Shown here in pieces: positions 22,735-61,103 of a stretch of DNA of 61,588 nucleotides. Where the stretch lies: contig JBBUAP010000004.1 of the NCBI GenBank assembly GCA_038058635.1, positions 97,196 to 158,783 of the forward strand, in the 5' to 3' direction. Within the stretch, counting starts at the first letter, position 1. Each line of letters opens with the position of its first letter. Both the position numbers and the translations under genes were made by a program. The notes under the pieces were generated by a model. The model searched no databases. It had not been told where the DNA came from and saw only the letters and a program-made list of their open reading frames with translations. The stretch comes from Patescibacteria group bacterium (GTDB taxonomy: Bacteria; Patescibacteriota; UBA1384; 2-12-FULL-50-11).

Positions 22735-24339
22735 TTTGGGCCCATAGCTCAGTTGGTAGAGCGTCTGGCTGGCAGTCAGAATGTCGTCGGTTCGAATCCG
22801 TCTGGGTCCACCAAACGTGGCATCTTTTCCATTCAGAGGCAAACAACAGGAGTAACAGTCGTGTATTTTGGTGTTCGAATAGCCGGGGTACGCCCATGGC
22901 ACTCCGATAGGAAATATCGAACACAAGAGCACTCTCTTCTGTTCTAGCGACGACTCTTTATAAGTTTCAGCGAGATCCTCGAACTTGGATTTAATAAAGT
23001 TCGCGACTCGCTCGAGGCTATATTTATCGAGCACGGAATCGCTCTGAGCGATCTTGATAAAGGCGATTTTTTCCTCAAGCCGTCTGTTTTGCTCTTTAAA
23101 TACATCATCGGTGTAGATACCGGCCAGATTCTTCTCAATCAGCGCCTGGCGTAGCTCGTAGAGCTTCTTCAGTTCGACCTCAGCTTCTTCACGCTGTTTC
23201 AGTAAGATTGCCGCCCTACCCTTATAAGTTCGACGGATAAAGGCAATTAGCAATTCAATGGCCTTTGGCCTGAGAGAGATTTCTTTGAGAAAATTTATCA
23301 TCAGTTCATCCATATCCTCCATCTTTACCGATGAACCCCTCCCCTTTTTGCAACGTTTGGGACAGAAGTAGTAGCCGAAGCGTCGGTATTTGCCCTTACT
23401 AAACCCACCGGTAAAGGATCGACCACAGATACCACATTTAATAATCCTTCTAAGCGGAAAATTAGGGTTGTTGGGACTCTTTTTAGCTAGCTGTACCGCC
23501 TTACTAGTATTGCGGCCGGTTACTACAGACTGAACACGATAGAAGAGCTCTTCGGTAATCATCGGCACGTGCTGGCCTTTGACCTCTTCGTTATAGGCCG
23601 CCGAGACGATAAAACCGGCGTAGAACTTGTTTTTGAACATCCGTGACATCGTCTGGTTACTAATTAGAGAGACTTTGCCATGATTTCTCTCCCGAACTCC
23701 CTGCTTATTGAGAATTTCGGCCATCTCTCGCAGAGTCGTCGTGCCAGTGCCCATTCGCTCCCAAGCGGCTTTGATCAGATCCCAGTTTTCCGGATCTTTG
23801 GTGCCGTAGCCGCTCTGATTAACATAGCCGAGCGGTACCGGGCCATTTCGTAATCCACATAGGAATCGAGCCTTCATGCCGTTTCTGGTGCGTTCAGAGC
23901 GGATATCGTTATCCATCTGAGCAAAGCCAGCTAGCATTGTTTCGACAAACCTTTCGGTTGGGCTGTTGCCGGTTGGTTCAGAAGCCGAGATGAGGCGGAT
24001 CTCACACTCACTCAACTTTTTCCGAATCGATAAGTAATCCGAAGTCTGGCGGGAGATTCGATCAAGCCGATAAACAATCACCGCGTCAATAATCTTTTTA
24101 TTCTTACGGCAGTATTCGAGCATTCGAATTAGTTCCGGCCGATTCACCGTTTTAGCCGAACGACCCTCTTCCCGGAATATCTCAACGACTTCGTAACCCC
24201 GTTTCTCCGCTTCCTTGTGGCAGATATCCTTCTGGGTATCCAACGAATAATTCTCGACCTGTTCTTCCGTTGAAACTCGCAGGTATACTACCGCTTTCTC
24301 GACTCTCTTCGCCATCAAATCAACGATCTTGTTATCCAT
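22720..24339 (-). CDS. Large serine recombinase (integrase)
   Basis: N-terminal resolvase domain (VVYLRVSTEEQ ... VYRLDRISR), recombinase domain, Zn ribbon (CGICGRSF ... YYFCPKRC) and coiled coil. AGGAGG precedes ATG 24339. The last ~31 codons are antisense to the tRNA-Ala gene. Confidence 0.85.
   Translation of the reverse strand: MDNKIVDLMAKRVEKAVVYLRVSTEEQVENYSLDTQKDICHKEAEKRGYEVVEIFREEGRSAKTVNRPELIRMLEYCRKNKKIIDAVIVYRLDRISRQTSDYLSIRKKLSECEIRLISASEPTGNSPTERFVETMLAGFAQMDNDIRSERTRNGMKARFLCGLRNGPVPLGYVNQSGYGTKDPENWDLIKAAWERMGTGTTTLREMAEILNKQGVRERNHGKVSLISNQTMSRMFKNKFYAGFIVSAAYNEEVKGQHVPMITEELFYRVQSVVTGRNTSKAVQLAKKSPNNPNFPLRRIIKCGICGRSFTGGFSKGKYRRFGYYFCPKRCKKGRGSSVKMEDMDELMINFLKEISLRPKAIELLIAFIRRTYKGRAAILLKQREEAEVELKKLYELRQALIEKNLAGIYTDDVFKEQNRRLEEKIAFIKIAQSDSVLDKYSLERVANFIKSKFEDLAETYKESSLEQKRVLLCSIFPIGVPWAYPGYSNTKIHDCYSCCLPLNGKDATFGGPRRIRTDDILTASQTLYQLSYGPKLRDQ
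22737..22812 (+). tRNA. tRNA-Ala(GGC), CCA encoded
   Basis: Hand-folded: acceptor gggccca/tgggtcc with G3:U70, D arm gctc-agttggta-gagc, anticodon arm tctgg-ctGGCag-tcaga. The T arm gtcgg-ttcgaat-ccgtc has one U:U mismatch. Confidence 0.85.
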
Positions 24340-24341
24340 CA

Positions 24342-24671
24342 CTATCCTCCTTTCAATAATTCTTTTAATGTTAGGCCGTCAAAGGCCTGTTTTTCATAAA
24401 CGTCAAACCAGGAATCAACCAGGCACTGCAGTTCAGTAATAAATATCTCCACCTCCTCATCCGAGAGGTTAGTTGCTACTTCTTGCAAGATCATCCGGGA
24501 TTTCTGGACTTTTGTCTCTTCAGCGGGGGTTGGAAATATTGAGCCTAGCGTCGTATCTAAGGTTTTGTAAGTGGCCGGGCTAATTAGTGGCCGATCAAGC
24601 TCCATCACTGCCGTTCGACCCGAAGTCGGCAGTGAGTCAGCTCGCCTAATTGTTCCTTCGATTATGGTCAT
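24342..24671 (-). CDS. Hypothetical protein upstream of the recombinase (possible accessory/RDF)
   Basis: 109-aa ORF whose stop abuts the recombinase start. No family recognised. Confidence 0.4.
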   Translation of the reverse strand: MTIIEGTIRRADSLPTSGRTAVMELDRPLISPATYKTLDTTLGSIFPTPAEETKVQKSRMILQEVATNLSDEEVEIFITELQCLVDSWFDVYEKQAFDGLTLKELLKGG

Positions 24672-24686
24672 ATCCCTCCTAAAGAC

Positions 24687-24723
24687 TATCTATATATAGA
24701 TAACACTATCTACATTTAGATAG
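24687..24723. promoter_or_regulatory. Two adjacent palindromic operator-like sites sharing TATCTA/TAGATA half-sites
   Basis: Perfect 16-bp palindrome tatctatatatagata (24687-24702), and ctatcta-catt-tagatag (24706-24723). Confidence 0.45.
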
Positions 24724-24796
24724 TTGTCAAGTGGGTAAATTACCAAGACTTTTACCCGATTTGACTAGTAGTGCCAAACCAAGATAGAAAGAGTAT

Positions 24797-24964
24797 ATGC
24801 TGTATAAAAAGTGTCCGAAATGCCGGGGAACAATGATTGGCGTTAAGGAGAAACCTCCTTTTTACCGCTGTTCCCAGTGTAATTATGAGGCCAAAACCAA
24901 AGAAGACATCGACCAACTCGAAACGTATAAAAATAGCCAGATCCCTCGTTCTACTAACCTTTAG
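24797..24964 (+). CDS. Possible 55-aa Zn-ribbon protein (speculative)
   Basis: My own translation is MLYKKCPKCRGTMIGVKEKPPFYRCSQCNYEAK..., with two CxxC pairs. It is below the ORF-track cutoff and converges on and overlaps the RT stop by 11 nt. Confidence 0.3.
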   Translation: MLYKKCPKCRGTMIGVKEKPPFYRCSQCNYEAKTKEDIDQLETYKNSQIPRSTNL

Positions 24965-25904
24965 AAGCGGAAATTAGCTCGCTGGCCACTTTCTTGCTCC
25001 GAACATGCCCGAGATAGCCAAGGAACGACGGCAAACTCTTTTCGTTTCGTCCCGGGTCGGTTCTCGCCTGCCGCAGAAGGATACGCTTAATCCTTTGCAC
25101 CGTTCTAACTCGCGGGACGCTGTGGTGCGGTCGGGCAACATAGCCAACAAAATCCAGGCCCCAACTTAATTTCCGCAAGGTGACTTTATTGGGATGAACA
25201 TTCAGGGCAAGACGCTCCCGCAAAAACCGATTGATTTCGACAAAGTAGCCCATTAGTTCTTCCGGGTTTTGACCAAGCAAAATAAAATCGTCTGCATAGC
25301 GCAAGTAATGTGGGGCATTTAATTTATGCTTAACAAACTTATCGAACCGATCCATATAAACATTGGCAAAGAGCTGGCTCGTTAAATTACCAAGCGGCAT
25401 TCCTTTGCCCGGGAGAACGGCAAAGCTGTCGATAATCTGACTGAGCAGGCGAAACATCCGTTTGTCGCCAACTCGCTCCCTCAACATCGTTTTAAGAATC
25501 TGATGATCGACACTGTCGAAAAACTTCCTAATGTCACATTTAAGCGCCCAGCACGGTTGGGTGTAGTTTTTACTGACTTGTCGGCCGTGGTCAGCTAGCT
25601 CGCGAAAAGCTCGGTGAGTGCCCATGTTTTTACGGCAAGCGTACGAATCAGAAATGAATGTCGCGTCATAAGGCGGGTAAAGGACTTGGTAGATCGCTTG
25701 ATGGACAAGCCGATCGCGGACGCTAGCTTTGCTGATGATCCGGAGTTTCGGATCGGTGATTTGAAACTGCTGATAACCGCCTGGTCGGTATGCATCCTGT
25801 ATCAAATCTCGGTGGAGAGCGAAGATATTATCTTCCAGATTGAATTCAAAAAGCTGAATATCTTCCTTCCGACGCTTACCCTTGCGGTAATTCCCCCACG
25901 CCAA
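24954..25904 (-). CDS. DGR reverse transcriptase
   Basis: RT motifs including RYADDFILL, and the DGR-typical PLGNLTSQLFANVYM (SQ motif). The compact 316-aa size and the adjacent TR/VR pair also fit. Confidence 0.9.
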   Translation of the reverse strand: MAWGNYRKGKRRKEDIQLFEFNLEDNIFALHRDLIQDAYRPGGYQQFQITDPKLRIISKASVRDRLVHQAIYQVLYPPYDATFISDSYACRKNMGTHRAFRELADHGRQVSKNYTQPCWALKCDIRKFFDSVDHQILKTMLRERVGDKRMFRLLSQIIDSFAVLPGKGMPLGNLTSQLFANVYMDRFDKFVKHKLNAPHYLRYADDFILLGQNPEELMGYFVEINRFLRERLALNVHPNKVTLRKLSWGLDFVGYVARPHHSVPRVRTVQRIKRILLRQARTDPGRNEKSLPSFLGYLGHVRSKKVASELISASKG

Positions 25905-25965
25905 AATGAGATTGTCGATTGAGACGATCTGGTCAAAGTCACCCTCATGCAGTAATAATCTTTTT

Positions 25966-26400
25966 ATGGAGAACTTTCCTCAACAACTCCTGGGTGGAGT
26001 ACCAATTACCCAGAAAACTTATGATTTTTACAGAACCCTTCATCTTCAGGTGCAGCGTTTTCCGAAGATTGAGCGTTATGCTACCGGTCAAACTCTCCAG
26101 AACGAGACCCTAGGCTTGCTAAAGTGTCTGCTGGCCGCCTGCCAAACTTCCGGGTCAGTTAAGGCCGGCCACCTAAGTGACGCCAGTCTCCAGCTCGAAA
26201 CGGTCAAGGTTTTTGTCCGGTTGGCATATGACGTTCGCGCCCTAGATCGACGGGCTTACATTCTCTTGCAAGAATTCTTGCAAGAGATCGGCCGGATGCT
26301 CGGCGGCTGGATCAAGTCGACCCAAAAGTCAAACTCCGAACAGTCAAGTACGAGCAAGCAAAATCTCAGCGACAAAGCTGAGACTGAGCTTATTGAATGA
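25966..26400 (+). CDS. Avd-like four-helix-bundle accessory protein, on the opposite strand to RT/TR/VR
   Basis: KTYDFYRTLHLQVQRFPKIERYATGQTL ... LQEIGRMLGGWIKS is the typical Avd / 23S-IVS four-helix-bundle pattern. I prefer the start at MENFPQQ. Confidence 0.75.
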   Translation: MENFPQQLLGGVPITQKTYDFYRTLHLQVQRFPKIERYATGQTLQNETLGLLKCLLAACQTSGSVKAGHLSDASLQLETVKVFVRLAYDVRALDRRAYILLQEFLQEIGRMLGGWIKSTQKSNSEQSSTSKQNLSDKAETELIE

Positions 26401-26504
26401 TCTGCATGCGCAAATCTTCCCTGCCAACAGATAGTTGGCTGTGAATCATCTGCCCCTGCAGCTGTTCTTCGCCAGCATAGCTGACTATGAATAGTGTGAG
26501 ATTT

Positions 26505-26619
26505 CGGGAGAAGGAGACGCCCAGGTTGTCGTTCGAGTTGTCCGGGTTATCGTTGTCGACGTTCAGGCCGTTGGAGTTGAAGTTGCCAGCATAGACCAAG
26601 TTGCCGTCAGATGAACGCT
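26505..26619 (-). repeat. DGR template repeat (TR)
   Basis: 115 bp colinear with the VR. All 14 differences are A (coding-strand sense) in TR against non-A in VR. Confidence 0.9.
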
Positions 26620-26948
26620 CCTTTGCGTTTCCCCAATCAAATCAACGGCACGATGCACTAAGAAGTAGAGACCGTGCCTGTATAACAATGTGGCGGCAGG
26701 CAAAGCTTCTTTGCCACCCGCGCTAGGAAAACGCAAGCAATCTATTAACTACCCCACACGCTCTAGGTGTGAGGGGAGTGTCAGTTCACTCCATTCGGCC
26801 GGAGTGCGTCCGTAAACGCACTCTCAATGGCAGTTGGATTTTAGCAGTTTTTAGGCGCACTGAATAGGGGTAGGGAGGCATTTTCCAAAATTTCGCTCGA
26901 GTCGGCTTCGCCGACACCCCAGTAAACCAAGGATCCAAGGGCCAAGGT

Positions 26949-29066
26949 TCAAGATTTTTGATTGCGGGAGAAGGAGACGCCCAGGTCGTCGCTCGAGATG
27001 TCCGGGTAAGCGTAGTCGACGCTCAGGCCGCGGGAGAGGAAGTAGCCAGCATAGACCAAGAGGCCGTCAGATGAACGCTGATTAGTCCAAGAGTACATCC
27101 CTTCCATTAAACGAGCTCCCTTAGGATGACTGGCTGATATGGCCCTGTTTGCTTCGAAGAATACCGTCGTGTCGTACATCGCCTCAACAGGGGTCTGGCG
27201 GAATAATTGATTAATTTTTAGTTCCGAGAGTTGTTTGGCGGCTTCCTGCCAGTCGGATCCCATTAGTTTCTCAATTGCCCCGCGTTTTGCGTCGAACTCC
27301 TTAATCGCCTCTGTGTACATTCCTCGCAATAGCGGATCGGAAATATCTGGCCCGACTTGAGTGTCGACGTACTTCGCTAACTCGCCAGTTTGCTGAAGGT
27401 AGTTTTTGCTAGTCGAATCCGGAATGACTTCTCGGCTGGTTAAGGCCCAGCCAGAACGGACGGCTTCTTTTTTGAAGAAATCTTCGTCTTTATACCAATC
27501 CCTGTCATAAAGAACCTTACCATCTTTGTCGCGATCAAATTTTGGCTGAAGAATTTGATCCAGTCGTTCCATTGTTAGCGGGTCGCCTCTTTCGTCTTTA
27601 CCTTGACGATAAATAAGAAACTGTCCGAGCTCCTTAGCGCGTTCCAGCTCTTGCTTGGAGAATGGAATTGGCTCGACTTTTTCTAGATCGATTTTAACCC
27701 CCAGTATTTCCGCAACACGATTAGGAGCGATAACCTGATATTCACCCAGAATTCGCTGTGCTTCAGTAACCTGTTCGAGCAGTTCGCCGGTCAAAGGGGT
27801 TGCTTCAACTCTTGATGCCGTCAAGAGTTCTTCCGCGGTTACGGTAGTTTCTCCGAGCCCTTCTCGCTCCGCCCCGCGGCGTTTGGTTTCTTGCTGTGGA
27901 ACAAAAGCGACGTGGCGAATCAGCTCCTCTAGTTTTTGGCGATCGGCGGTGCCCTCCAGCTTGTTGGAGTAATAATAGCGCAACGCTTTTTGGAAGGTCT
28001 CGTTAATATCGCCGTTGTAAAATTGTTGAACGAACTCGGTCACTCGTCGCGGTTCCATCCGGTCATCGTAGCTAAATTTCTGCGGCTGATCGGCGGCTAC
28101 GGAGCGATTGGCAACCATTTCTTTGGCCGCTCGATGAAACTCTTTGTATTTGCCGAGCACTTCTTCGATACCGGGTATTTCTTTGAGCTGTTCGCGTGGC
28201 AGGGCCTGATCTCTGGTGGTTAGGTAGGACTCTTGCGGCACGGCATTGGTATCGGTTTCTTTGGCTAAGCCGAAGAGTACGTCGGTCGAGTAGGAGAAGG
28301 TTTGTTCTGGCAGATTCGTCACCTCTTTCTGGTAATTCCAGCGTCGAAGTTGAGCCGGATCAAGCGGTTCGCGGCCGATAAAACCCTTGCCCGGCGGATT
28401 CGTTAACCCAACAATCTTTGTTTGGTCTTTATTGACCCCGACCGTCTCCGAAGCATCCTCCGAAAGAACAATTTCGCCGTTTCGCTCCAGGGCATCAAGC
28501 ACCTCGTGAAGACGAATGGTGATGTTCGGTGCGGCCGAGTTGTACTCGTCAAGGACGATAATTTTTCTCTTGCCCTCCTCAATCCGTAGGCCTGATGTAA
28601 CTTTACCGTCGGCAAAAATATACTCCGGATCATCAATCCGTTCTCGGTGAGGATTGGGAATATAGCGACCCATCAGATCCTCTACATCGCTGGCGCCGTT
28701 TAGGTTGACATAGTGAACTTCCCAGCCCAGTTCCGCGGCCATTTTACGAACGGTTGTCGTTTTGCCGATACTGGTTCCGCCCTCTAAAAGAATCGGTTCA
28801 CTTTGCAAGAAACTGACGGCAAACTTTTTTTGCAACTCCAACGAAAAGCGGTCTTGGATGTACTTCTCTCCGGCGTAACTTTCTCGCTTCGGTACGAATT
28901 GACTCTCAACATGAGCTTTTTCTAGTCGGACACCCATGTAGGTAACTGAATTCTCATCTTCAACGACCGGCAGGTTTGGTTGTTGTTCGACTTGCTCAAC
29001 TACGGCATCCTGGACGCCGGTTTCTTCAGCCCCAACTTGATTTTCCGGTGATCCTGGTTCAGGCAT
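26949..29066 (-). CDS. DGR target: MoxR-like (AAA_5) ATPase fused to a C-terminal CLec/FGE-like variable domain
   Basis: Walker A LLEGGTSIGKTTT, Walker B IIVLDEYN, and LDPAQLRRW. The C-terminus YSWTNQ...GVSFSR carries the VR. Confidence 0.85.
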   Translation of the reverse strand: MPEPGSPENQVGAEETGVQDAVVEQVEQQPNLPVVEDENSVTYMGVRLEKAHVESQFVPKRESYAGEKYIQDRFSLELQKKFAVSFLQSEPILLEGGTSIGKTTTVRKMAAELGWEVHYVNLNGASDVEDLMGRYIPNPHRERIDDPEYIFADGKVTSGLRIEEGKRKIIVLDEYNSAAPNITIRLHEVLDALERNGEIVLSEDASETVGVNKDQTKIVGLTNPPGKGFIGREPLDPAQLRRWNYQKEVTNLPEQTFSYSTDVLFGLAKETDTNAVPQESYLTTRDQALPREQLKEIPGIEEVLGKYKEFHRAAKEMVANRSVAADQPQKFSYDDRMEPRRVTEFVQQFYNGDINETFQKALRYYYSNKLEGTADRQKLEELIRHVAFVPQQETKRRGAEREGLGETTVTAEELLTASRVEATPLTGELLEQVTEAQRILGEYQVIAPNRVAEILGVKIDLEKVEPIPFSKQELERAKELGQFLIYRQGKDERGDPLTMERLDQILQPKFDRDKDGKVLYDRDWYKDEDFFKKEAVRSGWALTSREVIPDSTSKNYLQQTGELAKYVDTQVGPDISDPLLRGMYTEAIKEFDAKRGAIEKLMGSDWQEAAKQLSELKINQLFRQTPVEAMYDTTVFFEANRAISASHPKGARLMEGMYSWTNQRSSDGLLVYAGYFLSRGLSVDYAYPDISSDDLGVSFSRNQKS
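26965..27079 (-). repeat. DGR variable repeat (VR), the last ~38 codons of the 705-aa target
   Basis: See TR. VR encodes YAGYFLSRGLSVDYAYPDISSDDLGVSFSR, whereas TR encodes YAGNFNSNGLNVDNDNPDNSNDNLGVSFSR. Confidence 0.9.
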
Positions 29067-29487
29067 TTTGGTAGGTTGCCCCCACTCGGGACAAGAAAGT
29101 TAAGCCGGTTTTTTCAATCTCGGCCAGTTCTCGGCGGGTGACGAGCAAAAGGGTGTGGTTTTCTTCGTATTTGGGCGAGAAAATCGCTTTTTGCATTGTT
29201 ACCTGATCGGATACTTCAATCTGGCCGGTCGGGTATTGGACGACGAAATCATAGGCTTGTTTTAGGGTAAATGGGTGATGGTCGTCTAAAACCAGGTAAT
29301 TCTTCGAGCCTTTGTGAGCGGCGTGAATCAGATGATAAACCGACTCCTGCTCGTCGTGGCCAGCTTTGTTCAGTAGCTGACGAAATTGATGAAGCTCTCT
29401 TTCATCTTCGGCAATAATCAACGGTACTTCTTTCGAAAAACCAGACTGGTTGATGAATTCGGCAAATGAGCTTTCGTCGATAGCCAT
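29059..29487 (-). CDS. Hypothetical 142-aa protein coupled to the DGR target
   Basis: Overlaps the start of the target gene by 8 nt. No family recognised. Confidence 0.5.
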   Translation of the reverse strand: MAIDESSFAEFINQSGFSKEVPLIIAEDERELHQFRQLLNKAGHDEQESVYHLIHAAHKGSKNYLVLDDHHPFTLKQAYDFVVQYPTGQIEVSDQVTMQKAIFSPKYEENHTLLLVTRRELAEIEKTGLTFLSRVGATYQNA

Positions 29488-29500
29488 ATCTTTAGTTTAC

Positions 29501-31768: not shown

Positions 31769-31800
31769 GCTTTCAGGTTACAGATTCTTGGAAAACTTTC

Positions 31801-32007: not shown

Positions 32008-32010
32008 TGT

Positions 32011-35621: not shown

Positions 35622-35629
35622 TTTGCTCC

Positions 35630-51636: not shown

Positions 51637-51650
51637 CAACAGACATTCCA

Positions 51651-51704: not shown

Positions 51705-51721
51705 TCTACAAAGAAGAAACT

Positions 51722-53173
51722 GTGATTAAGCGTTTTTTATTCATTTCCGTTTTCATACTTGGTCTACTCGTGCCGGTTTTGGTGATCAAAGCCCAGGCGA
51801 ATGGTTTTGCCCTAGTCGCAATTAGTCCGAGCGGTCAAAAAACAGTTTGTGTCAAAGGGTCTGAAAACTCTGTCATGTCGGCGCTCCAAAATCAGGGCTT
51901 TAACCCCAAACAAGACGACACTGGGTTCATTTACTCACTGATCGGTTACGATGGCCCACTCTCAAGTGATCCAGCCGCCGAACAGAACTTCTGGGGCTTC
52001 TGGATTAGCGACGACCTCTCTTTCAGCAGTCTCGGCCCGGCTCAAGTTAAACCCCAAAACGGCGAACTCTATCTTCTTCATTTCGGTAACGGTACTAAAC
52101 CGGCGACAAGTATTAAGTATGCGGATGTTTGTGTAGAGGCATCGGCGCCAACTCCGGCACCAATAAGTTCTTCTACCGAACATCCAACGGGCACTCCTAC
52201 GGAATCGCAACAAGTCGGAACCAACCAAAGCAGCTTCTTTACCAGCTTCCAGTACTTGCGAAACAATTACACCAATCAAGGTCAGAGTGCTAAAGACTGG
52301 GCAGCGATGGCACTGGGCAGCCAGAATCAAAGTATTGAAACCAGTAGTAACGACTCGGAGTCCGTTCTCAGTCTTTCGAGAAATGCGTTATCTAGGGCAG
52401 CTCAGGGGCTGGATCGAACGACTCAAGTCAACAAGATTAAGGATAGTTATCGGGAGAATCAGCTTGGTAACCCGGGTTTAATTAATGATGATATTTTCGG
52501 TATTTTGGCTATTCAGAGCACCGACCCAGCGTGGCTAAAGGATCACCAGGCGGTCTTTGACACAATCCTTTCCTCTCAGCGATCAGATGGCAGTTTCGGA
52601 TTTTCCAAAAGCAGCGACGGCGACGTCGATATAACCGCTGCGACAATCTGGGCTCTCGTTTACAAACAGGATTTGCCAACAGATTCACTCAATAAAGCCT
52701 CAGCCTACATTGCAGGCGCCCACAACAGTGATGGCGGCTTCGGTTTTAAGCCCAATCAAATGTCAAATGTTGCTTCGACAAGTTGGGCAATTCTGGCTTA
52801 TCGATCAATTGATAAGAGTGTGACTCAAGCCGAAAACTATCTCATTAATAATAAGCAAAGTGGTGGCTACTGGCTCTTCGGCGGTGAGCCAAATTATCTA
52901 AATACCGCTTACGCCGTTCTGGCACTGTCCGACAAAAAAATGCCGATCGTTGCAAATCCGCCTACTAACCCCATCCCGACCCCACCGCCCACAATAAAAC
53001 CAAAGCCTCGAACGATTATTGAGACAACATGGATGTTTACTGAAGTTGAAGAAACAGCAAGCTCCGAGAGTCACTCATGGTCCGGTTCATGTTCGGCCTC
53101 AGCCAGCGCCTCAGCATCGGCCAGTGGCGGGAACGCTTCTGCAACGGCATCCGCCAGTGCGAGTTGTAATTAG
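51722..53173 (+). CDS. Secreted DUF4430-like plus prenyltransferase/terpene-cyclase-repeat protein with a Ser/Ala-repeat tail
   Basis: Signal peptide after GTG 51722 (VIKRFLFISVFILGLLVPVLVIKAQA). Repeats SQRSDGSFGF, HNSDGGFGF and KQSGGYWLF. Tail SASASASASASGGNASATASASAS. Confidence 0.6.
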   Translation: MIKRFLFISVFILGLLVPVLVIKAQANGFALVAISPSGQKTVCVKGSENSVMSALQNQGFNPKQDDTGFIYSLIGYDGPLSSDPAAEQNFWGFWISDDLSFSSLGPAQVKPQNGELYLLHFGNGTKPATSIKYADVCVEASAPTPAPISSSTEHPTGTPTESQQVGTNQSSFFTSFQYLRNNYTNQGQSAKDWAAMALGSQNQSIETSSNDSESVLSLSRNALSRAAQGLDRTTQVNKIKDSYRENQLGNPGLINDDIFGILAIQSTDPAWLKDHQAVFDTILSSQRSDGSFGFSKSSDGDVDITAATIWALVYKQDLPTDSLNKASAYIAGAHNSDGGFGFKPNQMSNVASTSWAILAYRSIDKSVTQAENYLINNKQSGGYWLFGGEPNYLNTAYAVLALSDKKMPIVANPPTNPIPTPPPTIKPKPRTIIETTWMFTEVEETASSESHSWSGSCSASASASASASGGNASATASASASCN

Positions 53174-53325: not shown

Positions 53326-53655
53326 ATGCTCAGCCGCCTTCGAACTTTAGGTCTTTCGCTGTTATTGACGCTTGTCTTGGTGACCCCTGCGCTGGCCGCC
53401 TCTGAAGACGTGGCCAAAGTTCAGAACTTTATCCAGAACGCGATTCAAATTCTGGTAACGTTTGCCGGACTACTAGCGGCCGGGTTCTTCGTGATGGGTG
53501 GTATTGGCTACATCACCAGTTCCGGTAACCCGGAACATCTTGACCGCTCGAAACGAACGATAATTTATTCGGGAATCGGGTTAGCGGTCGCCATTGGAGC
53601 GTTTGTCCTAAGTAACGCCATCTCGGAGTTGGCGTCCACTGCCTTTGGTGGATAA
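53326..53655 (+). CDS. VirB2/TrbC-like T4SS pilin candidate
   Basis: Signal peptide (..TPALA/AS), two TM helices separated by a short polar loop, 109 aa. Confidence 0.55.
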   Translation: MLSRLRTLGLSLLLTLVLVTPALAASEDVAKVQNFIQNAIQILVTFAGLLAAGFFVMGGIGYITSSGNPEHLDRSKRTIIYSGIGLAVAIGAFVLSNAISELASTAFGG

Positions 53656-53657
53656 TA

Positions 53658-54938
53658 ATGAACAGGCTTGTTTCCGCAATTATCTTGGCGGGAACGACCT
53701 TGCTCCTGCCGACCGTCGCCTTCGCCGCCTCTAACGGTGAGGTTGCTCACTTTACCCAGGACACCCTAACGGTCCTAATTTCGGTTGCCGGATTGGCCGC
53801 TGCCTTCTTCCTAATACGGGGCGGCTATGTCTATATAACATCAACCGGTAAACCGGAGGCTCTGGCAGAAGCTAAGCGAACGATTCGACAGGCCTTAATC
53901 GGTCTGGTGATTGTCATTGCCGCTGCTGTATTTTCGTCGATGCTCTCTGGGGCGTTCAACGAACCAAATACTCCAGCTCTGGGTACGGCGATTAATTTGG
54001 CTCCGATTCAACCGGCTCCGGACGACGGCTCGCTGGCCCGGATTATATTGAATGCTATTGCTGGATTCCTTCAAAACATCGTCCAGTCAGCCACCCGACC
54101 GATTATCGACGGCGTAATTCACTTCCTAACAACGACCCCAATGCTTTCAACTAATTCGGTTGTCTTTAACTTCTGGCTGATAATGGTCGGTATTACTGAC
54201 TCACTCTTCGCACTGGGAATCGCCTTACTTGGCTTTCAAGTGATGAGCGCCTCAACCTTTGGCTTTGAGGATGTGCCACTGAAGCAGTTGATGCCGAGAA
54301 TCGGGCTGGCATTTCTGGTTGCCAACACATCCATCTTTACTATCGACTGGATAATTAAGCTTTGCCAGGTGTTGATTGATGCGGTTATCCATGCCACAGG
54401 TGGGATCGGTCAGGCCTGGATACTTAATGCCTTTGATCCGGCCGCACTAGCAACTGGAGGAACACTGCTGATTACGCTCATTTTTATGCTTGTATTCACT
54501 CTGCTGGCGGTTGTCTTGCTACTGTTTTATATCAGCCGCTTGATGATCCTGGCTTTTGGGGCGGTAATGGCGCCGTTGGTCTGTTTATTATGGCTGATGC
54601 CCAAGATGAGTGATTTTGCCGAAGCGGCGGCTAAATCCTACCTCGTGATGATTTTCAGTCTTTTTATTCACGTTGTTATCATTCAACTGGCCTCGGCGTT
54701 TCTAACGGTACCAAACCAGGTCAATACCAACCCGTTTATCTCGATTCTGATCGGAATCGCCCTCTTTTCGATTCTGCTTAAGAGTACGGCGATGACGGTG
54801 CAATTGGCGCTGGCTTCGCAAGCAACGGGAGTGTTTAAGAAATTCGGCGGTCAGTTCCTCAACGTTGTTAGTCCAGCTCCTGCTGCAGTCAGCTCAACGC
54901 GCTCTAGTGCTGCCCTAGCCAAGAAAGCAGCCGGATGA
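53658..54938 (+). CDS. VirB6/TrbL-like polytopic membrane protein with an N-terminal pilin-like module
   Basis: Residues ~1-100 are clearly paralogous to the preceding pilin-like ORF, followed by at least 6 TM helices. Confidence 0.6.
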   Translation: MNRLVSAIILAGTTLLLPTVAFAASNGEVAHFTQDTLTVLISVAGLAAAFFLIRGGYVYITSTGKPEALAEAKRTIRQALIGLVIVIAAAVFSSMLSGAFNEPNTPALGTAINLAPIQPAPDDGSLARIILNAIAGFLQNIVQSATRPIIDGVIHFLTTTPMLSTNSVVFNFWLIMVGITDSLFALGIALLGFQVMSASTFGFEDVPLKQLMPRIGLAFLVANTSIFTIDWIIKLCQVLIDAVIHATGGIGQAWILNAFDPAALATGGTLLITLIFMLVFTLLAVVLLLFYISRLMILAFGAVMAPLVCLLWLMPKMSDFAEAAAKSYLVMIFSLFIHVVIIQLASAFLTVPNQVNTNPFISILIGIALFSILLKSTAMTVQLALASQATGVFKKFGGQFLNVVSPAPAAVSSTRSSAALAKKAAG

Positions 54939-55441
54939 GAACAACCGTTGTCCCAGCCCAAATTACGACAGTTGAAGACCGAATTGCTGGTAACTTCACT
55001 TTTATCCAGATTTTCTTGCTGATTGTGGCGTTAGTTGTTGGAACAATTATTTATGCTGTCGCCCCGCCTCAGATGAAGCTTGGCTCTATAAAGCTTTCAG
55101 CAATTGTTTTCCAATTCTTCGTCTTCGGCGGACTGGCAATTAGAATCAACGGCAAGATCGTTGCCGACTGGCTGGTAACCTACATGCGTTACTCAAAACG
55201 ACCCCGCTATTACGTTTTCACTAAAAATGATGAACTGAGCCGGGAAAAGTATATAGCAACCAAAGAACCCAAAAAGGTTACCGGTGAGCAAAAACAAGTA
55301 GCTAAGTCGGTAGCTCCATCTATCCCGGCCGCTGAACAGGCCAGGGTTACTAAATTACTTACCAATCCAACCGTGACAGTTTCGTTTGAATTAGCTAAGA
55401 AAGGTGGCATAGATGTTTCACTCACGCCAGTCAAAGAGTAA
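54935..55441 (+). CDS. PrgI/VirB3-like small membrane protein
   Basis: VPAQITTVEDRIAGNFTFIQIFLLIVALVVG. Lies immediately upstream of VirB4. Confidence 0.5.
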   Translation: MRTTVVPAQITTVEDRIAGNFTFIQIFLLIVALVVGTIIYAVAPPQMKLGSIKLSAIVFQFFVFGGLAIRINGKIVADWLVTYMRYSKRPRYYVFTKNDELSREKYIATKEPKKVTGEQKQVAKSVAPSIPAAEQARVTKLLTNPTVTVSFELAKKGGIDVSLTPVKE

Positions 55442-56030
55442 CGGTTCGGCCAGATCACAAATCGCAATTAAAGGCGTTCGCGATAATATTTTAATTCTGC
55501 CTGATAATCGCTACAGGGCCGTTCTGACTACTTCATCAGTTAATTTTGAATTGCAGAGTGCCGACGAGCAGGACGCGTTGGTCGATACCTTCCAGTCATT
55601 CCTCAACTCTCTCACTACCCCGATTCAGATATTAGTCCGAATTCGTGAGTTGGACGTCGATCGCTACATTGAGGACTTCCAGGAAGCTAGGGCAAGCGAA
55701 ACTCAGGCCATATATAAGAAACAGATGGAAAGCTACGGGGAATTTATCCGTCAGCTTGTCTCTGGTAATAAAATCCTATCCCGGCGCTTTTACGTTGTCA
55801 TCCCCTACGAGAGCCGCAATGTGACTGACTTCCCTCTAATTCGAGAGCAGCTGCAACTGGAGCAAGAGATCATTATTAAAGGCTTGGAAAAACTAGGCAT
55901 GACGGCGCGGCCACTGACCAGTCTGGAGATTCTCGACCTGTTCTACAGCTTCTACCGACCACAACACGCTAAAACCCAGCCGTTAACACAGGAGTTAATC
56001 AAACACACCCATGCCACGAATTATCTCTAA
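55413..56030 (+). CDS. VirB4/PrgJ-like ATPase, N-terminal part (separate ORF)
   Basis: IAIKGVRDNILILPDNRYRAVLTTSSVNFELQSADEQDALVDTFQSFLNSL is a typical VirB4 N-domain. Overlaps the next ORF by 20 nt in a different frame. Confidence 0.65.
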   Translation: MFHSRQSKSNGSARSQIAIKGVRDNILILPDNRYRAVLTTSSVNFELQSADEQDALVDTFQSFLNSLTTPIQILVRIRELDVDRYIEDFQEARASETQAIYKKQMESYGEFIRQLVSGNKILSRRFYVVIPYESRNVTDFPLIREQLQLEQEIIIKGLEKLGMTARPLTSLEILDLFYSFYRPQHAKTQPLTQELIKHTHATNYL

Positions 56031-57789
56031 ACTTAAAAAGCGCCTGACCGGCTGGAGAAAGCAGCGCCGGGAAAAACCGAAGAAACTGGCTTTTCACGTT
56101 GGCGAACAAGATCAACTGGACTTTGTTACCTACTCCGGACTTGAAGAGCAGATAAAACACCTGGTGATTGATGGGCGCTATGTTCGAACGCTCTATGTTT
56201 CCGGCTATCCGTACACTGCTTCCAGCGGTTGGCTCAATCACTTGATCAACTTCAACTACAACGTCGATATTTCCTTTCACATCGAACCGGTCGATGCAAC
56301 GTTCGCTTTGCCGAAGTTGAACCGTAAGATTACGGAGATGACTTCGACAAAACGGGCGATGGAGCGAGCCGGTCGGATTATTGGAGCCGAATTGCTTGAC
56401 CCGTTGGAATCGGCGATTGAGCTACGGGACAAGATTCAGCGCGGCCAGGAAAACCTCTTCCAGATCTCGCTCTACATTACAATCTCGGCCGATTCGGTGG
56501 TGGAGTTGGAGAAGACGGTCAAATTACTGGAAACTTTACTGGCGACACGGCTGTTTTATACAAAAAACGCTATTTTCCAGCAACTGGAAGGGCTCCAGTC
56601 CACTCTGCCACGGGGAGACAATCTTTTGAGCCAGAAACGAAACCTCGATAGTTCGTCAGCGGCCTTGATGTTTCCGTTTATCTCTTCGGAATTAGTCCAG
56701 GAATCTGGTGTACTGTACGGAATCAACAAATCAAACAGTTCGCTCGTGATTCTTGACCGATTCTCGTTACCAAATGCCAACAGCATTCTCTTTGCTCAAT
56801 CTGGAGCCGGCAAGAGCTACACAGCCAAAGTCGAAATATTGCGTCACTTGATGCAAGGCACGAAAGTAATCGTAATTGACCCGGAACGTGAGTATCGACA
56901 GTTGGCCGAGTCGGTCAAGGGAACTTATATCAAACTGTCGGTTCACTCGAAAGAGAAGATCAATCCGTTCGACTTGTCGGTTAACGCCTACAACGAGGCA
57001 GACAGTTTTACTGACCACATCCAGTCGCTGACAGAAATTATCTCCTTGATGGCCGATGGCCTCCACGCCGAAGAGAAGTCGGTGGTAGATCGGGCGCTTT
57101 TATTGACCTATAAAAAATTCGGCTGGGCGAAGAAAGCCAATAAACCCGGTAGCAAGTACCCACTGTTAAGTGACTTTTTTAAAGTTCTGAAATCGTTAAA
57201 GCAGCCGCGTCTCTGTCAGCGCTTGGAGAAATACATCAGAGGCTCGCTTTCCGAAGTCTTTAATTCCCAAACCAATATCCAACTCGATAATCGTTTGGTT
57301 GTTTTTGACACTAAAGACCTGCCAGAGTCATTGCGGCAGATTATGCACTTGGTCGTCGCTCAGTTTACTCAAAACCAGGTTAAATCTGACCCAACGAAGC
57401 GCATTTTGGTGATTGATGAGGCTTGGCTGATGCTGGAGCACGAAGAGTCGGCACGATTCATTGCCGGATTAGTTCGACGGGCACGGAAATATTATCTTGG
57501 TGTCAGTATCATTTCTCAGCAAGCCAGTGACTTTCTGCAAAATGCTTACGGTCGAGCAATCGCCTCCCAAAGCGCTCTGCGCATTCTGATGCGCCAAGAC
57601 ACAACCACGATCAAGAACGTCGCCTCCGAGTTTCGTTTAAGCGAATATGAGCAGCGCTTTCTACTAACATGCGAGCGCGGTGAGGCCTTGATTATTGCCA
57701 ATCAGCACCACGTGGCGGTCAAGGTGACGGCATCCGAGTCCGAACATCCGTTGATTACAACTGACCCGTCGGAACGACGAAAAGAATGA
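56011..57789 (+). CDS. VirB4/PrgJ-like ATPase, C-terminal ATPase part
   Basis: Walker A FAQSGAGKSY and Walker B LVIDEAWLML. Confidence 0.8.
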   Translation: MPRIISKLKKRLTGWRKQRREKPKKLAFHVGEQDQLDFVTYSGLEEQIKHLVIDGRYVRTLYVSGYPYTASSGWLNHLINFNYNVDISFHIEPVDATFALPKLNRKITEMTSTKRAMERAGRIIGAELLDPLESAIELRDKIQRGQENLFQISLYITISADSVVELEKTVKLLETLLATRLFYTKNAIFQQLEGLQSTLPRGDNLLSQKRNLDSSSAALMFPFISSELVQESGVLYGINKSNSSLVILDRFSLPNANSILFAQSGAGKSYTAKVEILRHLMQGTKVIVIDPEREYRQLAESVKGTYIKLSVHSKEKINPFDLSVNAYNEADSFTDHIQSLTEIISLMADGLHAEEKSVVDRALLLTYKKFGWAKKANKPGSKYPLLSDFFKVLKSLKQPRLCQRLEKYIRGSLSEVFNSQTNIQLDNRLVVFDTKDLPESLRQIMHLVVAQFTQNQVKSDPTKRILVIDEAWLMLEHEESARFIAGLVRRARKYYLGVSIISQQASDFLQNAYGRAIASQSALRILMRQDTTTIKNVASEFRLSEYEQRFLLTCERGEALIIANQHHVAVKVTASESEHPLITTDPSERRKE

Positions 57790-58415
57790 ATCCGAAAACG
57801 CTCCAGGTAATTTTCGGTCTCTTTTCAATGAAAAGCGAGATCAAGTATATTTTCTATACCTTCCTGACCATTCTCCTTGTTCCAATTTTGATTGTCATCA
57901 TCCTGACACAGGCCGGATTCAACATTATATCTGATGCCTTAGCGACCAGTGACCCTCAAACTCAAGAAGTCATTATTCATAATCCAGCCAATGGTGAGAC
58001 ACTCGATCGTATTGCGGAAAAACGAATGTGGCCAACTAACGGGGTCGTTACTTTAGAGTTTGGTGAGCCAAACCTACCCTTCTATCTATTTCACACGGGG
58101 ATAGATATTGCCGATCCACATGGTCAAATCGGTTCAGAAGTTGTCGCATTTATGGCCGGAAAAGTTAAAACCGTCAAACACGACGAAGATGGGTATGGTA
58201 ACCACGTCGTTATCCAGCATCGAAGCTATCTCGTTTCCCTTTATGGCCACCTTGATTCAATCTTGGTAGAGGAAGGACAAGATCTAATAATGGGCGATAC
58301 AATTGGTTTTATGGGCACTACCGGCACTTCATCCGGTCCGCACTTACATTTTGAAATTCGGATATTTTATATCCCAATAAACCCTCGGATCTTTCTGACT
58401 GGTGACCCGCCATAA
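57786..58415 (+). CDS. M23-family peptidoglycan hydrolase (T4SS wall-lytic factor)
   Basis: TM anchor, HTGIDIA and GPHLHFE. ATGA overlap with VirB4. Confidence 0.8.
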   Translation: MNPKTLQVIFGLFSMKSEIKYIFYTFLTILLVPILIVIILTQAGFNIISDALATSDPQTQEVIIHNPANGETLDRIAEKRMWPTNGVVTLEFGEPNLPFYLFHTGIDIADPHGQIGSEVVAFMAGKVKTVKHDEDGYGNHVVIQHRSYLVSLYGHLDSILVEEGQDLIMGDTIGFMGTTGTSSGPHLHFEIRIFYIPINPRIFLTGDPP

Positions 58416-58420
58416 AACAC

Positions 58421-58729
58421 CTAAACAGTATTTTTCTTTAGCTTCTGGATTGCTCGCTGTTCAACAATCCGAATTGCCGAGCCGGTAACTTCATACATTT
58501 TTCCGATTTCTTCCAGAGTTTTTGATGGTTCTTCAAAACCATAGTGCGCCCTTAAGATTGTCTGCTCGCGGGGTGATAAAATATTAAAGTATTCATAACG
58601 TTTCTCTAAGAACCCCCTGATATCTTCCATAATTAGAGGATAGGACGAGTTTCGCTCGTTGTCGAGCTCAATCCTCAGGAATTGTTGAACGAAATCCGTA
58701 AATATCCTAGATAATAAAAGTGTTGACAT
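58421..58729 (-). CDS. Sigma-70 region-4-like HTH mini-protein
   Basis: REQTILRAHYGFEEPSKTLEEIGKMYEVTGSAIRIVEQRAIQKLKK. Confidence 0.6.
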   Translation of the reverse strand: MSTLLLSRIFTDFVQQFLRIELDNERNSSYPLIMEDIRGFLEKRYEYFNILSPREQTILRAHYGFEEPSKTLEEIGKMYEVTGSAIRIVEQRAIQKLKKNTV

Positions 58730-58816
58730 ATGCTTTATATGTTAATAAAATGACGGAGGAAATTTAGGGAGGGTTATTGCTATTTCTATTAAATAAATTA
58801 ACTGGAGAAAGTATAA

Positions 58817-59698
58817 ATGGACAATCAAAGAGTAAAAACGGTCAGTTACGGATTACGCGATCTGCCCATCGGTGTCGTTGAATGTGATGGTGAGCAGCCT
58901 CGCCGAGACCTAGATACTGAAATTATGGTTGCTAACCTTAAGCCTTCGATTGCCCACCATGGCATTCAGCAGCCAATTACAGTTACAGAGTACAAGACGG
59001 GTAAATATCGAATTATTGACGGTCACCGGCGTTATAAATGTGCCAAAGATTTGGGTTTCACTTTAATCCCTTGTTTGATCTACCCGGACCTGGATCCTGG
59101 TGAAATGGAAGTGCGCCGTTATGAGATGCAGAATCTTCGTCGGCCCTGGAAGCCTCTTGAACGTTCCGACGCTTTCTTGCGTATGAAAGAAAAGTTGGGC
59201 TTCCGTTCAATTCGAGAGATGGCTGAGTACATCGGTATCTCTGAGGGTTCGGTTGCTAATTATCTTGAATTGCGTAATCAACAGCTCCATCTTTTGAGCC
59301 GATTTGAGAAGAATAACCTCGGTGAGTCATATCAGACCGAGATCGTCCGTCTCAAACCCCATCTCTGTAAGGTAGGCGATTTTGAGGCCAATGAGATCAT
59401 TGATAATATTATGGAGCGAATTGTTAACGATAAAATTCGCAACTCCAAAGAAATTCGAGTCCTAAAGAGCGCTTTCATCCGAATCGACCTCTATGCTGAC
59501 TTGATTGCAAATTATCTTCAAAATCCGGACATGAAACTTCGCGAACTCGAGGAGCAAATTCTACGAACCGGTTTCTCATGGAACGTCCAAAAAGTTGTGG
59601 CTGATATCGCCAAAAAGAAGTCCAAAGGGGAGAAACTGACCGAAAAGGAGCAGGACGCCCTCAAACAACTTCGAAAATTAATCGAAGAAGTTCTCTAA
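58817..59698 (+). CDS. ParB/Srx-like nuclease-domain protein
   Basis: GIQQPITVTEYKTGKYRIIDGHRRYKCAKDLG, plus a central HTH. Confidence 0.75.
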   Translation: MDNQRVKTVSYGLRDLPIGVVECDGEQPRRDLDTEIMVANLKPSIAHHGIQQPITVTEYKTGKYRIIDGHRRYKCAKDLGFTLIPCLIYPDLDPGEMEVRRYEMQNLRRPWKPLERSDAFLRMKEKLGFRSIREMAEYIGISEGSVANYLELRNQQLHLLSRFEKNNLGESYQTEIVRLKPHLCKVGDFEANEIIDNIMERIVNDKIRNSKEIRVLKSAFIRIDLYADLIANYLQNPDMKLRELEEQILRTGFSWNVQKVVADIAKKKSKGEKLTEKEQDALKQLRKLIEEVL

Positions 59699-59699
59699 A

Positions 59700-61103
59700 A
59701 TGATCCATCTTTTTGGAGAAGATAAACTTAGGGCAGTAGCCTACTATCGTCACTCGGCCGAAGACAAGCAAGAAAACTCAGTTGGCAATCAGCGCGAACA
59801 GGTTGAGGAATTTGCCGCTAAGGTTGATGTTGAGATTCTCGAGCATTTCCAAGACGAGGGCTTTACCGGTACTAACGCTAACCGTCCAGGCTTCCAAGCG
59901 ATGCTAAATAAATGGGTGCATGACCCGAACGCTCCGAAGATTGACTACATCCTTGTCTATGACGCTTCCCGCTTTGGCCGGTTTCAAAGTCGACCGGAAG
60001 CATGGGAGCTATTAGTTCAACTAGATAAACGAGGCACAAAACTCGCTACCGTTAATCGCGGTCTGCCAAAGCCTGGGTCCAATGTAATGGATGACATTAT
60101 GCTCGTCCTGGATTTTGCCCAAGCTGGCGAACAGAGCGCTTTGCTTAGTGAGAAAGTGTTTTACGGCTGCAACAAAATATCGGGGCAAGGTTACTCGGCT
60201 GGAGGCTGCGCTCCTTATGGTTATGTTCGAATATTACTCAACGAGCAACGAGATCGTGTCGATGTATTAAACCTTGGGGAGAGGAAAATGATTTCGAACC
60301 AGCGAGTTAGTTTTGAACCCGCAATTAACGGCGAAGCCGAGGTGGTCAAGCGAATATTCAGAGAGTTTGTTTCCAGAGGCTATTTCCCGGATGAAATTAC
60401 TGACCGACTTAACCACGATAAAATAGTAACTGCTAAGCAAAATGAGTGGACAACGCACGGTATTATTAACGTCTTAAGTAACGAAACGTACATAGGAACC
60501 AGAGTTTATAACAAAGTTTCAAGCCGGCTCAATCAGGAGAAGCGTCGCAATCGTCCTAGTGTGTGGACTCGCTGCTTAAACGCTCACCCAGCTATTATTG
60601 ACGAGCTGACATTTCGCAAGGCTCAGGAGAGGCTGTATTGGCTCCGACCCGCCAGTCACGGACAATCAATCCGTCAATTTCGCTCAACACAGTCCTATGT
60701 CTGGCGGTATTTTACCGAAATATTCCAGCGCTTTACGGAAGACCAACAGTTCTACCTTCGTAGTAATCTGCCGGTGGTGTTTGGCAATACTTACGTGGTT
60801 GGTGACGAGAAACGATCCTGTTTCTATATACCCAGCAAGGCAAAGAGGTTTGGCAAACTGTTCGCAATCACTATCGACAATGCTTCCGAGAAGCCATCTG
60901 TCGATAGTATTAATTTGGTCGATGTGCAGGAAATCGGCTGGTCGAACTTTTTTATTACTAGCCAAAATGACGAACGACCAGTTATTGACGCCAACAAGAT
61001 TGATGCAACGCTAGAAAACGTCTGTGAAGAAGTGCTAGCACAGTGTAGTCCATGGCTCAAAGTTGCTCCTGAGGCAGTAATCGCTCCGCCAGTCGCAGTC
61101 TAA
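59700..61103 (+). CDS. Large serine recombinase (second copy)
   Basis: AVAYYRHSAEDKQENS ... VYDASRFGR is the resolvase catalytic domain, followed by a recombinase domain. Confidence 0.8.
   Translation: MIHLFGEDKLRAVAYYRHSAEDKQENSVGNQREQVEEFAAKVDVEILEHFQDEGFTGTNANRPGFQAMLNKWVHDPNAPKIDYILVYDASRFGRFQSRPEAWELLVQLDKRGTKLATVNRGLPKPGSNVMDDIMLVLDFAQAGEQSALLSEKVFYGCNKISGQGYSAGGCAPYGYVRILLNEQRDRVDVLNLGERKMISNQRVSFEPAINGEAEVVKRIFREFVSRGYFPDEITDRLNHDKIVTAKQNEWTTHGIINVLSNETYIGTRVYNKVSSRLNQEKRRNRPSVWTRCLNAHPAIIDELTFRKAQERLYWLRPASHGQSIRQFRSTQSYVWRYFTEIFQRFTEDQQFYLRSNLPVVFGNTYVVGDEKRSCFYIPSKAKRFGKLFAITIDNASEKPSVDSINLVDVQEIGWSNFFITSQNDERPVIDANKIDATLENVCEEVLAQCSPWLKVAPEAVIAPPVAV

Follow-up and report, generated by a model that had tools for sequence, protein, structure and literature searches.

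Window positions 22812-61537 very probably represent one integrative and conjugative element (ICE) of 38,726 bp, which was inserted into a tRNA-Ala(GGC) gene of a groundwater Saccharimonadales bacterium by LSR1, a large serine recombinase (LSR) encoded at the left end of the element. "The window" denotes the whole analysed stretch of 61,588 nt, i.e. the final 61.6 kb of contig C4 in a 788-kb genome of 6 contigs (G000), and all position numbers are window coordinates. The host is an ultra-small groundwater member of Saccharibacteria, and the runs containing element DNA are groundwater metagenomes. A preliminary description of this DNA proposed an ICE because the gene content switches immediately 3' of tRNA-Ala(GGC) from glycolysis to a recombinase, a diversity-generating retroelement (DGR), restriction-modification (R-M) genes, Fic, a type IV secretion system (T4SS), ParB and a second LSR (LSR2). 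Pfam searches recovered every one of the named genes, and the ICE itself is borne out by attachment (att) borders at 22812 and 61537, an element-free site in relatives, a relaxase candidate, a type IV coupling protein (T4CP) and VirB4.

The borders were established by comparison with related genomes, in which the backbone order is enolase, iPGM, an open reading frame (ORF), tRNA-Ala(GGC), a variable stretch, DUF378, LeuRS, L32, NusB and RNase III; in the window, PGI, enolase, iPGM and a 221-aa ORF lie to the left of the tRNA. The proposed search for relatives with an empty site was productive: no recombinase follows this tRNA in G003 (same genus), G002, G004 or G010, and the similarity of the window to all four ends at GGTCCACCA. 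Run X5, from a different study, contains a 45.7-kb contig of a relative (~91% identical) that passes through the tRNA to 22817 and then diverges, together with an LSR1 contig, 92% identical and of similar depth, that joins a different tRNA-like 3' end at 22807. This 3' end has no counterpart in the present genome. At the right-hand side, two genomes are informative. G009 carries in the same tRNA a mini-element of 6,254 bp (6.3 kb) with the same ends and no T4SS, comprising homologs of LSR1 (74% amino acid identity), of the 109-aa protein encoded upstream of it (63-65%), and, at the far end, of an XRE-family gene (74%). In G013 the right-hand architecture is that of the window (VirB4, M23, sigma-r4, ParB, LSR2, XRE, attR, then DUF378 and LeuRS), and the left end (iPGM, tRNA-Ala, LSR1, 109-aa gene) is found on a separate contig. 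The homology of the window to the G009 mini-element and to G013 ends at ATGAAGGCCAC, i.e. at position 61537. Because homology to relatives stops at these two borders, we delimit the element as 22812-61537; its right end lies 434 nt past position 61103, where it had been placed originally, and takes in the XRE gene and the attP arm.

A search for a long direct repeat of the tRNA 3' end revealed none, as expected because the recombinase is of the serine type. Across all seven attL/attR pairs of the family the only shared bases are [C/G]AC, from which we infer, as the simplest reading, a 2-bp crossover (AC) that would occur at A73-C74 of the tRNA (22810-22811). The P' arm starts invariably with CAAA or CAAG across the elements, and because it begins with CAAA here, the element would provide the terminal CA of the encoded CCA of the tRNA. 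The predicted attP junction is ...ATGAAGGCCAC + CAAACGTGGC... (61537 joined to 22812), and the predicted repaired attB joins 22811 to 61538. Right ends in the family share the motif ..GGTGTTCGAA.., followed after ~14 nt by a terminal [G/C]NC[C/G]AC, and the final 4-6 nt of the P arm equal the 3' end of the target tRNA in each element (GGCCAC for Ala, GCGCAC for Arg, GGCGAC for Pro). The crossover is separated from a TTCGAA-like motif by 24 nt in the P arm and by 19 nt in the tRNA; in the model for A118-type integrases the attP half-sites are ~5 bp longer than the attB half-sites, which would fit these distances. In G007 (contig C1, ~114,170-114,300) we also observed a second tRNA-Pro 3' fragment (CCTCTCACCCCGAC) ~100 nt past attR, followed by a near-repeat of the flank, which may be the scar of an earlier integration.

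LSR1 exhibits the features of large serine recombinases, namely a catalytic domain with the nucleophilic Ser, a Recombinase domain and a four-Cys zinc ribbon; residues R22, S24, C303, C306, C327 and C331 are invariant (alignment A3), and searches of PDB sequences matched it to the TP901-1 and A118 integrases. Only 22812-24342 of the integrated gene is element DNA, and the final ~30 codons are antisense to the tRNA; the recombinase frame runs antisense into a tRNA in every case in the family. If the right end is joined to the left end, the LSR1 frame gains 26-31 codons up to a stop in seven of seven elements, and the tail restored in this way carries the conserved motif [SFY]EHLL[GS]W[FLV][DE]. 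The integrated forms instead continue past the crossover for 6-62 further codons of unrelated sequence. According to the mechanism we propose, LSR1 would recombine the tRNA with attP, which is sited in the 3' coding part of the LSR1 gene itself; because the LSR1 reading frame crosses attP, integration would swap the final 26 residues for tRNA-antisense sequence, and excision would restore the conserved tail. Upon excision, 1 nt would separate the LSR1 stop (TGA) from the XRE start (ATG) (61448-61454), and the 109-aa gene, LSR1 and XRE would be one coupled operon in the circle only. The XRE gene is inverted in the elements of G007, G014, G016 and G092.

The 109-aa gene is found directly upstream of the LSR1 homolog in all 21 loci listed, which include records from Berkelbacteria and WWE3 and two duplicate records; its product has no match in Pfam or NCBIfam. 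A model of its complex with LSR1 reached an ipSAE of 0.73, compared with 0.01 for the best control. In the benchmark, 58 of 80 solved complexes attained this mark, as did 2 of 110 mismatched pairs, counts that hold only roughly here since the model was built on our own alignments. At least 48% of the contacts agree between runs, and the pLDDT of the partner is at least 58. The modelled contacts on LSR1 comprise residues 358-379, 437-478 and 494-496; the first two segments follow the zinc-ribbon cysteines, the contacts adjoin the point of the tail swap, and the contacted region is presumably the base of the coiled coil. The model suggests that the 109-aa protein binds LSR1 at residues 358-379 and 437-478 and may act as a recombination directionality factor (RDF). 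We tentatively consider, though with considerable doubt, that the tail exchange is a built-in sensor of the integration state, the partner acting differently on full-length LSR1 (circle) and on tail-swapped LSR1 (chromosome). If this were true, directionality would be set by the position of attP and not by separate regulation of an RDF.

Conjugation genes occupy most of the right-hand part of the element. The preliminary description saw no canonical MOB relaxase, only a replication-relaxation family protein; the PF13814 match to this 248-aa protein spans nearly the whole model, and since PF13814 represents the MOB_C relaxase superfamily in the CONJscan scheme (PMC5357655), the element does have a relaxase candidate. 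Streptococcal integrative and mobilizable elements (IMEs) combine PF13814/MOB_C with a serine integrase and a VirD4 coupling protein (PMC5357655), and MOB_C is the commonest relaxase class in Patescibacteria, often near t4cp (PMC12102498). The T4SS operon is recognized by the Pfam families P-loop_TraG/CagE_TrbE_VirB, T4SS_pilin/TrbC, PrgI and M23, and its polytopic VirB6-like protein has ~8-9 hydrophobic segments according to hydropathy. VirB4 is encoded by two ORFs (55413-56030 and 56011-57789) that overlap by 20 nt in different frames; the chromosomal VirB4 paralog in this family is a single frame of ~900 aa. Between the T4CP and pilin genes lie two genes without homologs in the related ICEs examined, one of which encodes a 529-aa protein with one transmembrane segment and a weak alpha/alpha-toroid match. 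After excision, the MOB_C-class relaxase, VirD4-type T4CP and monoderm-type T4SS would transfer the element.

The distribution of VirB4 separates two systems. A protein with ~38-44% identity, which represents the chromosomal system, is present in 154 of 162 genomes of the class (here on contig C1, 41%). The ICE-type copy is found in 34 of the 162, including G000, and is scattered over many families; the other copies are 67-93% identical to ours, mostly 75-93%, and the same search revealed none in the congeners G001, G002, G004 and G005. Between G000 and G007/G014, enolase and iPGM are 64-68% identical, as compared with 90-93% for VirB4, 88-90% for the VirB6-like protein and 96-99% for the pilin between the ICEs of G000 and its relatives; judged by these identities, the conjugation genes are far more alike between genera than the housekeeping genes. 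Members of the family reside at tRNA-Glu (G003), tRNA-Pro (G007 and G092) and tRNA-Arg (G016), or abut a tRNA-like 3' fragment (G014). Their common layout is attL, LSR1, 109-aa gene, M23, VirB4, PrgI, VirB6-like, pilin, T4CP, PF13814, DUF3768, cargo, XRE and attR, although the G003 contig ends within T4CP, so that its far end is not seen. Of nine further T4SS modules examined, five have the 109-aa/LSR1 pair directly beside M23; in G123 it adjoins DUF3768 instead, and in G116 and G072 a distant serine recombinase takes its place, in G116 again at tRNA-Ala(GGC).

The second recombinase, LSR2, comprises Resolvase and Recombinase domains with invariant R17 and S19 and matches TnpX, phiC31 and SprA in PDB sequence searches, but it has neither a Zn_ribbon_recom match nor a four-Cys pattern (alignment A1). 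Among the 162 class genomes and a 401-genome sample of the phylum, the sigma-r4/ParB/LSR2 trio was found in one other genome only, G013, in which LSR2 carries an in-frame stop and the architecture is retained. Metagenomic homologs of LSR2 (35-65% identity) have ParB directly upstream in 63 of the 64 loci with enough sequence, and no T4SS genes were found near these ParB-LSR2 loci within flanks of up to 10 kb. Because it occurs in one other genome only, its homologs pair with ParB without T4SS and no zinc ribbon is recognizable, LSR2 appears to be accessory, the trio being most likely an accessory recombination module of the G000/G013 lineage and not the integrase of the ICE family. The strict ParB-LSR2 pair could be a recombination module of two genes that is widespread in Patescibacteria and so far undescribed. 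No tRNA is consistently adjacent to the LSR2 homologs; in two loci, L068 and L072, tRNA-Ser(GCT) lies immediately upstream of the pair, and in several metagenomic loci the neighbour of the pair is another serine recombinase or the reverse transcriptase of a DGR. The interval between the convergent LSR2 and XRE genes contains an imperfect palindrome of 89 bp, which has an RNA fold energy of -53 kcal/mol and lacks a T-run; it is kept in G013 with a compensatory change and is not conserved at the other LSR2 loci. A long hairpin downstream of other LSR2 homologs is not family-wide (z < -2 in only 1 of 34 loci). The palindrome may be an LSR2 site or a terminator-like hairpin.

Table 1. Features of the element and its flanks, in window coordinates
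Feature	Position	Strand	Remarks
tRNA-Ala(GGC)	22738..22813	+	integration target; ARAGORN
attL core CCACCAAACG	22808..22817	+	repeated at attR 61534-61543
LSR1, large serine recombinase	22720..24342	-	integrated form, 540 aa; Pfam Resolvase + Recombinase + Zn_ribbon_recom
109-aa partner, candidate RDF	24342..24671	-	stop overlaps LSR1 start
Upstream region of LSR1 module	24672..24940	.	G009, G013 and run X5 homologous up to ~24,913-24,940
DGR cargo	24954..29066	-	reverse transcriptase (RT) 24954-25904 (-), bAvd 25906-26400 (+), AAA_5 target gene 26949-29066 (-)
DGR template (TR) and variable (VR) repeats	TR 26500-26619; VR 26960-27079		VR at 3' end of AAA_5 gene
142-aa protein, VWA (CobT_C), trypsin-like protease	29059..33363	-	VWA 29501-31768; protease 32011-33363
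Low-GC defence block	33335..47117	-	Pfam, PADLOC; GC 0.420
DUF3768 protein	47310..47708	+	beside relaxase in all related ICEs examined
Replic_Relax (PF13814), 248 aa	47724..48470	-	MOB_C-class relaxase candidate; 47.3 bits, cut-off 25.3
VirD4-type coupling protein (T4CP)	48583..51105	-	TrwB_AAD_bind/TraG-D_C
Variable genes between T4CP and pilin	51178..53173	.	102 aa (-); 529 aa (+)
T4SS operon	53326..58415	+	VirB2-like pilin, 426-aa VirB6-like, PrgI/VirB3-like, VirB4, M23 cell-wall hydrolase
sigma70-region-4 mini-protein (-), ParB (+), LSR2 (+)	58421..61103	.	ParB 58817-59698; LSR2 59700-61103
Imperfect palindrome, 89 bp	61108..61196	.	between convergent LSR2 and XRE
XRE-family helix-turn-helix gene	61208..61450	-	far end of every family member followed that far
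Native C-terminal tail segment of LSR1 (26 aa + stop)	61452..61537	-	includes attP P arm 61511-61537
Flank outside element	61538..61588	.	51 nt, then contig end

The presence of two recombinases admits other architectures. The preliminary description left it undecided whether the region comprises two tandem elements or one element with two recombinases. In the tandem arrangement, LSR1 would mobilise a cargo island (22.8-47.2 kb) and LSR2 a conjugative element (47.3-61.1 kb), consistently with a recombinase at either end and a change of composition near 47 kb. We consider this extremely improbable, as there is a single P arm and a single attL, with neither an att-like sequence nor a tRNA fragment or further P arm around 47 kb or elsewhere inside, and the attR matching those of the LSR1 family is at 61537, on the right-hand side of LSR2. 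In addition, the 47-kb boundary coincides with the family cargo slot adjoining DUF3768, LSR2 occurs elsewhere only in G013, and genes assigned to the separate island are found inside one LSR1-bounded ICE in relatives (DGR/MoxR-VWA and defence genes in G007, G014, G016 and G092, with the DGR/MoxR-VWA part in G007 and G092). A nested composite, in which an LSR2-dependent conjugative element (~24.95-61.2 kb, from RT to ParB-LSR2) entered a small LSR1 element, similar to that of G009, which was already resident, is easier to envisage but still unlikely. The G009 mini-element indeed has the same LSR1, 109-aa and XRE ends and no T4SS, the homology of the LSR1 module terminates sharply at ~24.93 kb in G009, G013 and run X5, and LSR2 is located at the end of the T4SS operon, i.e. 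in the position of LSR1 in type-A relatives. Against this reading, G013 is the only one among the 33 further genomes with ICE-type VirB4 in which LSR2 was found, and there it has an in-frame stop although the architecture is kept; the LSR2 homologs are paired with ParB without nearby T4SS genes, and the recombinase next to other T4SS modules is LSR1 or a distant serine recombinase, as described above for M23, G123, G072 and G116. No inverted or direct repeats were found at the proposed inner ends, and searches of the relevant intergenic regions for repeats marking such ends or an LSR2-driven inversion returned chance-level matches only.

The single LSR1-integrated ICE might also be an immobile remnant that has lost excision and transfer and is inherited vertically, as could be argued from the VirB4 gene in two ORFs, the chromosomal LSR1 without its native tail, the lack of a recognizable VirB8-like gene and that of a visible excision junction. 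We regard such a remnant as highly improbable: the core genes are all intact open frames, and the VirB4 split is not a sign of decay because the nine other ICE copies examined all have the same split. Across genera, the identity of the conjugation proteins is 88-99%, and the congeners G001, G002, G004 and G005 are devoid of ICE-type VirB4. In source runs X1 and X2 only the integrated form is represented; contigs drop rare junctions and are uninformative on excision.

Several points nevertheless weigh against a single mobile ICE or parts of the proposed mechanism. The host DNA beyond attR amounts to only 51 nt, so attB is not reconstructable from this genome; the LeuRS region (LeuRS, NusB, RNase III) expected downstream from relatives is absent from this assembly, and no k-mer overlap joining the end of contig C4 to any other contig was found. 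Excision, the circle and transfer are predictions from sequence; the runs containing this DNA are available as contigs. The crossover position depends on the seven attL/attR pairs, and the neighbouring [C/G]A could be used instead. In this phylum the PF13814 proteins are putative relaxases, and no VirB8-like gene was recognized in the element. Besides the use of our own alignments, the complex model is open to memory of solved integrase-RDF structures, which is conceivable; because such complexes exist, its pass may partly reflect likeness to them. Quinonero-Coronel et al. (2025) reported that most T4SS of Patescibacteria are non-conjugative (PMC12102498). Finally, the interior (RT ... M23) is inverted with respect to G003, G007, G014, G016 and G092, and a composite history is possible. 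The sigma-r4/ParB/LSR2 trio occupies the place of the 109-aa/LSR1 pair in those relatives; the inversion, this replacement and the sharp end of the LSR1 module at ~24.91-24.94 kb make past shuffling of modules likely.

The cargo of the ICE consists of a DGR with adjacent genes and of a defence block. The DGR has RT, Avd and a TR/VR pair with 15 mismatches, 15 of 15 of them at TR adenines; it is genuine and would diversify a MoxR-type ATPase. The same cassette is present inside the ICEs of G007 and G092. The bAvd gene is encoded on the strand opposite to RT, TR and the target gene, an arrangement unusual for a DGR that is also found in G007 and G092. The defence block comprises genes for DUF2779/Cas4-like, HD, HsdR, GajB-like UvrD helicase, HsdS and 204-aa proteins, PDC-S14 (GIY-YIG), HsdM, a 95-aa protein, a PDC-S11-like protein, a 5' remnant of hsdM and SoFic. 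All three subunits of the type I R-M system (HsdR/S/M) are present at 35630-44295, and the Fic gene is located at 46011-47117.

The greater A+T content of the 33.3-47.1 kb stretch, which had been judged by eye and for which composition plots had been suggested, holds upon calculation: composition is not flat, and 33335-47117 stands out with a GC of 0.420 against a genome mean of 0.485 +/- 0.024 (5-kb windows) and a tetranucleotide distance to the genome of 0.0194, which is matched or exceeded in only 2.6% of 13-kb genome windows. Elsewhere in the element the GC is 0.47-0.48 and the tetranucleotide distances are in the normal range. The block has no recombinase of its own and sits between DUF3768 and the protease; in G014 and G016 the same slot contains other R-M genes. 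The A+T-rich block fills this variable cargo slot of the family. Outside the window, contig C1 (253000-271800) contains a second low-GC island (GC 0.427) after dnaK, with HsdM/S/R, Fic, trypsin-like protease, HD and DUF2779 genes, at which no tRNA or recombinase was seen. Its protease and HD copies are 85-86% identical to the ICE copies at the nucleotide level (protease 85%), and the tetranucleotide distance between the two islands (0.0095) has the same value as the average distance between ordinary genome windows and the genome profile. We also observed that the first ~15 codons of hsdM with upstream sequence (44251-44336) are repeated 1.5 kb away as a remnant (45816-45901, 85% identity), and that related pieces are found at three places in the C1 island; this repeat may be a junction sequence that helps to shuffle defence genes. 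In the left flank, the 410-aa ORF call for PGI (17864-19096) starts upstream of, and overlaps, the same-strand tRNA-Ala(CGC) (17898-17970), and its true start is probably downstream.

Integrases with attP inside their own gene, which is altered or split by integration, are known in Myxococcus phage Mx8 (IntP) and among SSV1-type archaeal integrases; these are tyrosine recombinases, unlike the serine recombinase LSR1, which would lose only a 26-residue tail and gain tRNA-antisense residues. With the serine integrase/RDF pairs phiC31 Int-gp3, SPbeta SprA-SprB and Bxb1 Int-gp47, the element shares a small partner, here modelled on helices flanking the presumed coiled-coil insertion in the zinc-ribbon domain. 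Unlike those RDFs, the 109-aa protein has no detectable sequence family and is translationally coupled upstream of its integrase, so it would not be separately regulable in the usual way. The closest parallels are streptococcal ICEs and IMEs with a single large serine integrase at one end (rumA-targeting ICEs, IME_Class_8; PMC4701971, PMC5357655). In the rumA-targeting ICEs a short repeat is present in the target gene and in the integrase gene, with reciprocal exchange of 3' parts (Ambroset 2016, PMC4701971), and in the streptococcal elements, as here, the MOB_C relaxase adjoins a VirD4 coupling protein and the machinery is of the monoderm type (Coluzzi 2017, PMC5357655). In that streptococcal study tRNA genes are targeted by tyrosine integrases only, and serine integrases insert within protein genes (PMC4701971, PMC5357655). 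The element described here differs in its tRNA target, its Patescibacteria epibiont host, its strictly linked 109-aa partner gene and its VirB2-like pilins.

With the T4SS described for the Patescibacteria clade (PMC12102498) the element shares the phylum and the set of VirB4, VirB6-like, PrgI/VirB3-like, VirB2-like pilin and T4CP components. Those systems are chromosomal, mostly without relaxase, and co-opted for other functions (PMC12102498), unlike the copy in the element, which is att-bounded, possesses a relaxase candidate and an integrase, is patchy (34/162) and, in pairwise comparisons, 75-93% identical across families. New in this copy are the specificity for tRNA-Ala(GGC), the accessory ParB-LSR2 module and the evidence of gene exchange between ICE cargo and a chromosomal defence island. 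The tRNA-specific serine integrases, with P-arm ends that co-vary with the target, are possible genetic tools for a phylum that is hard to manipulate. In the published view the T4SS of Patescibacteria is a fixed chromosomal system and conjugation is largely lost (PMC12102498); here a second T4SS copy resides in an att-bounded element. Because the family occupies different tRNA genes in different genera, it points to real conjugative traffic among ultra-small epibionts, in which such elements would carry DGRs and defence islands between lineages.

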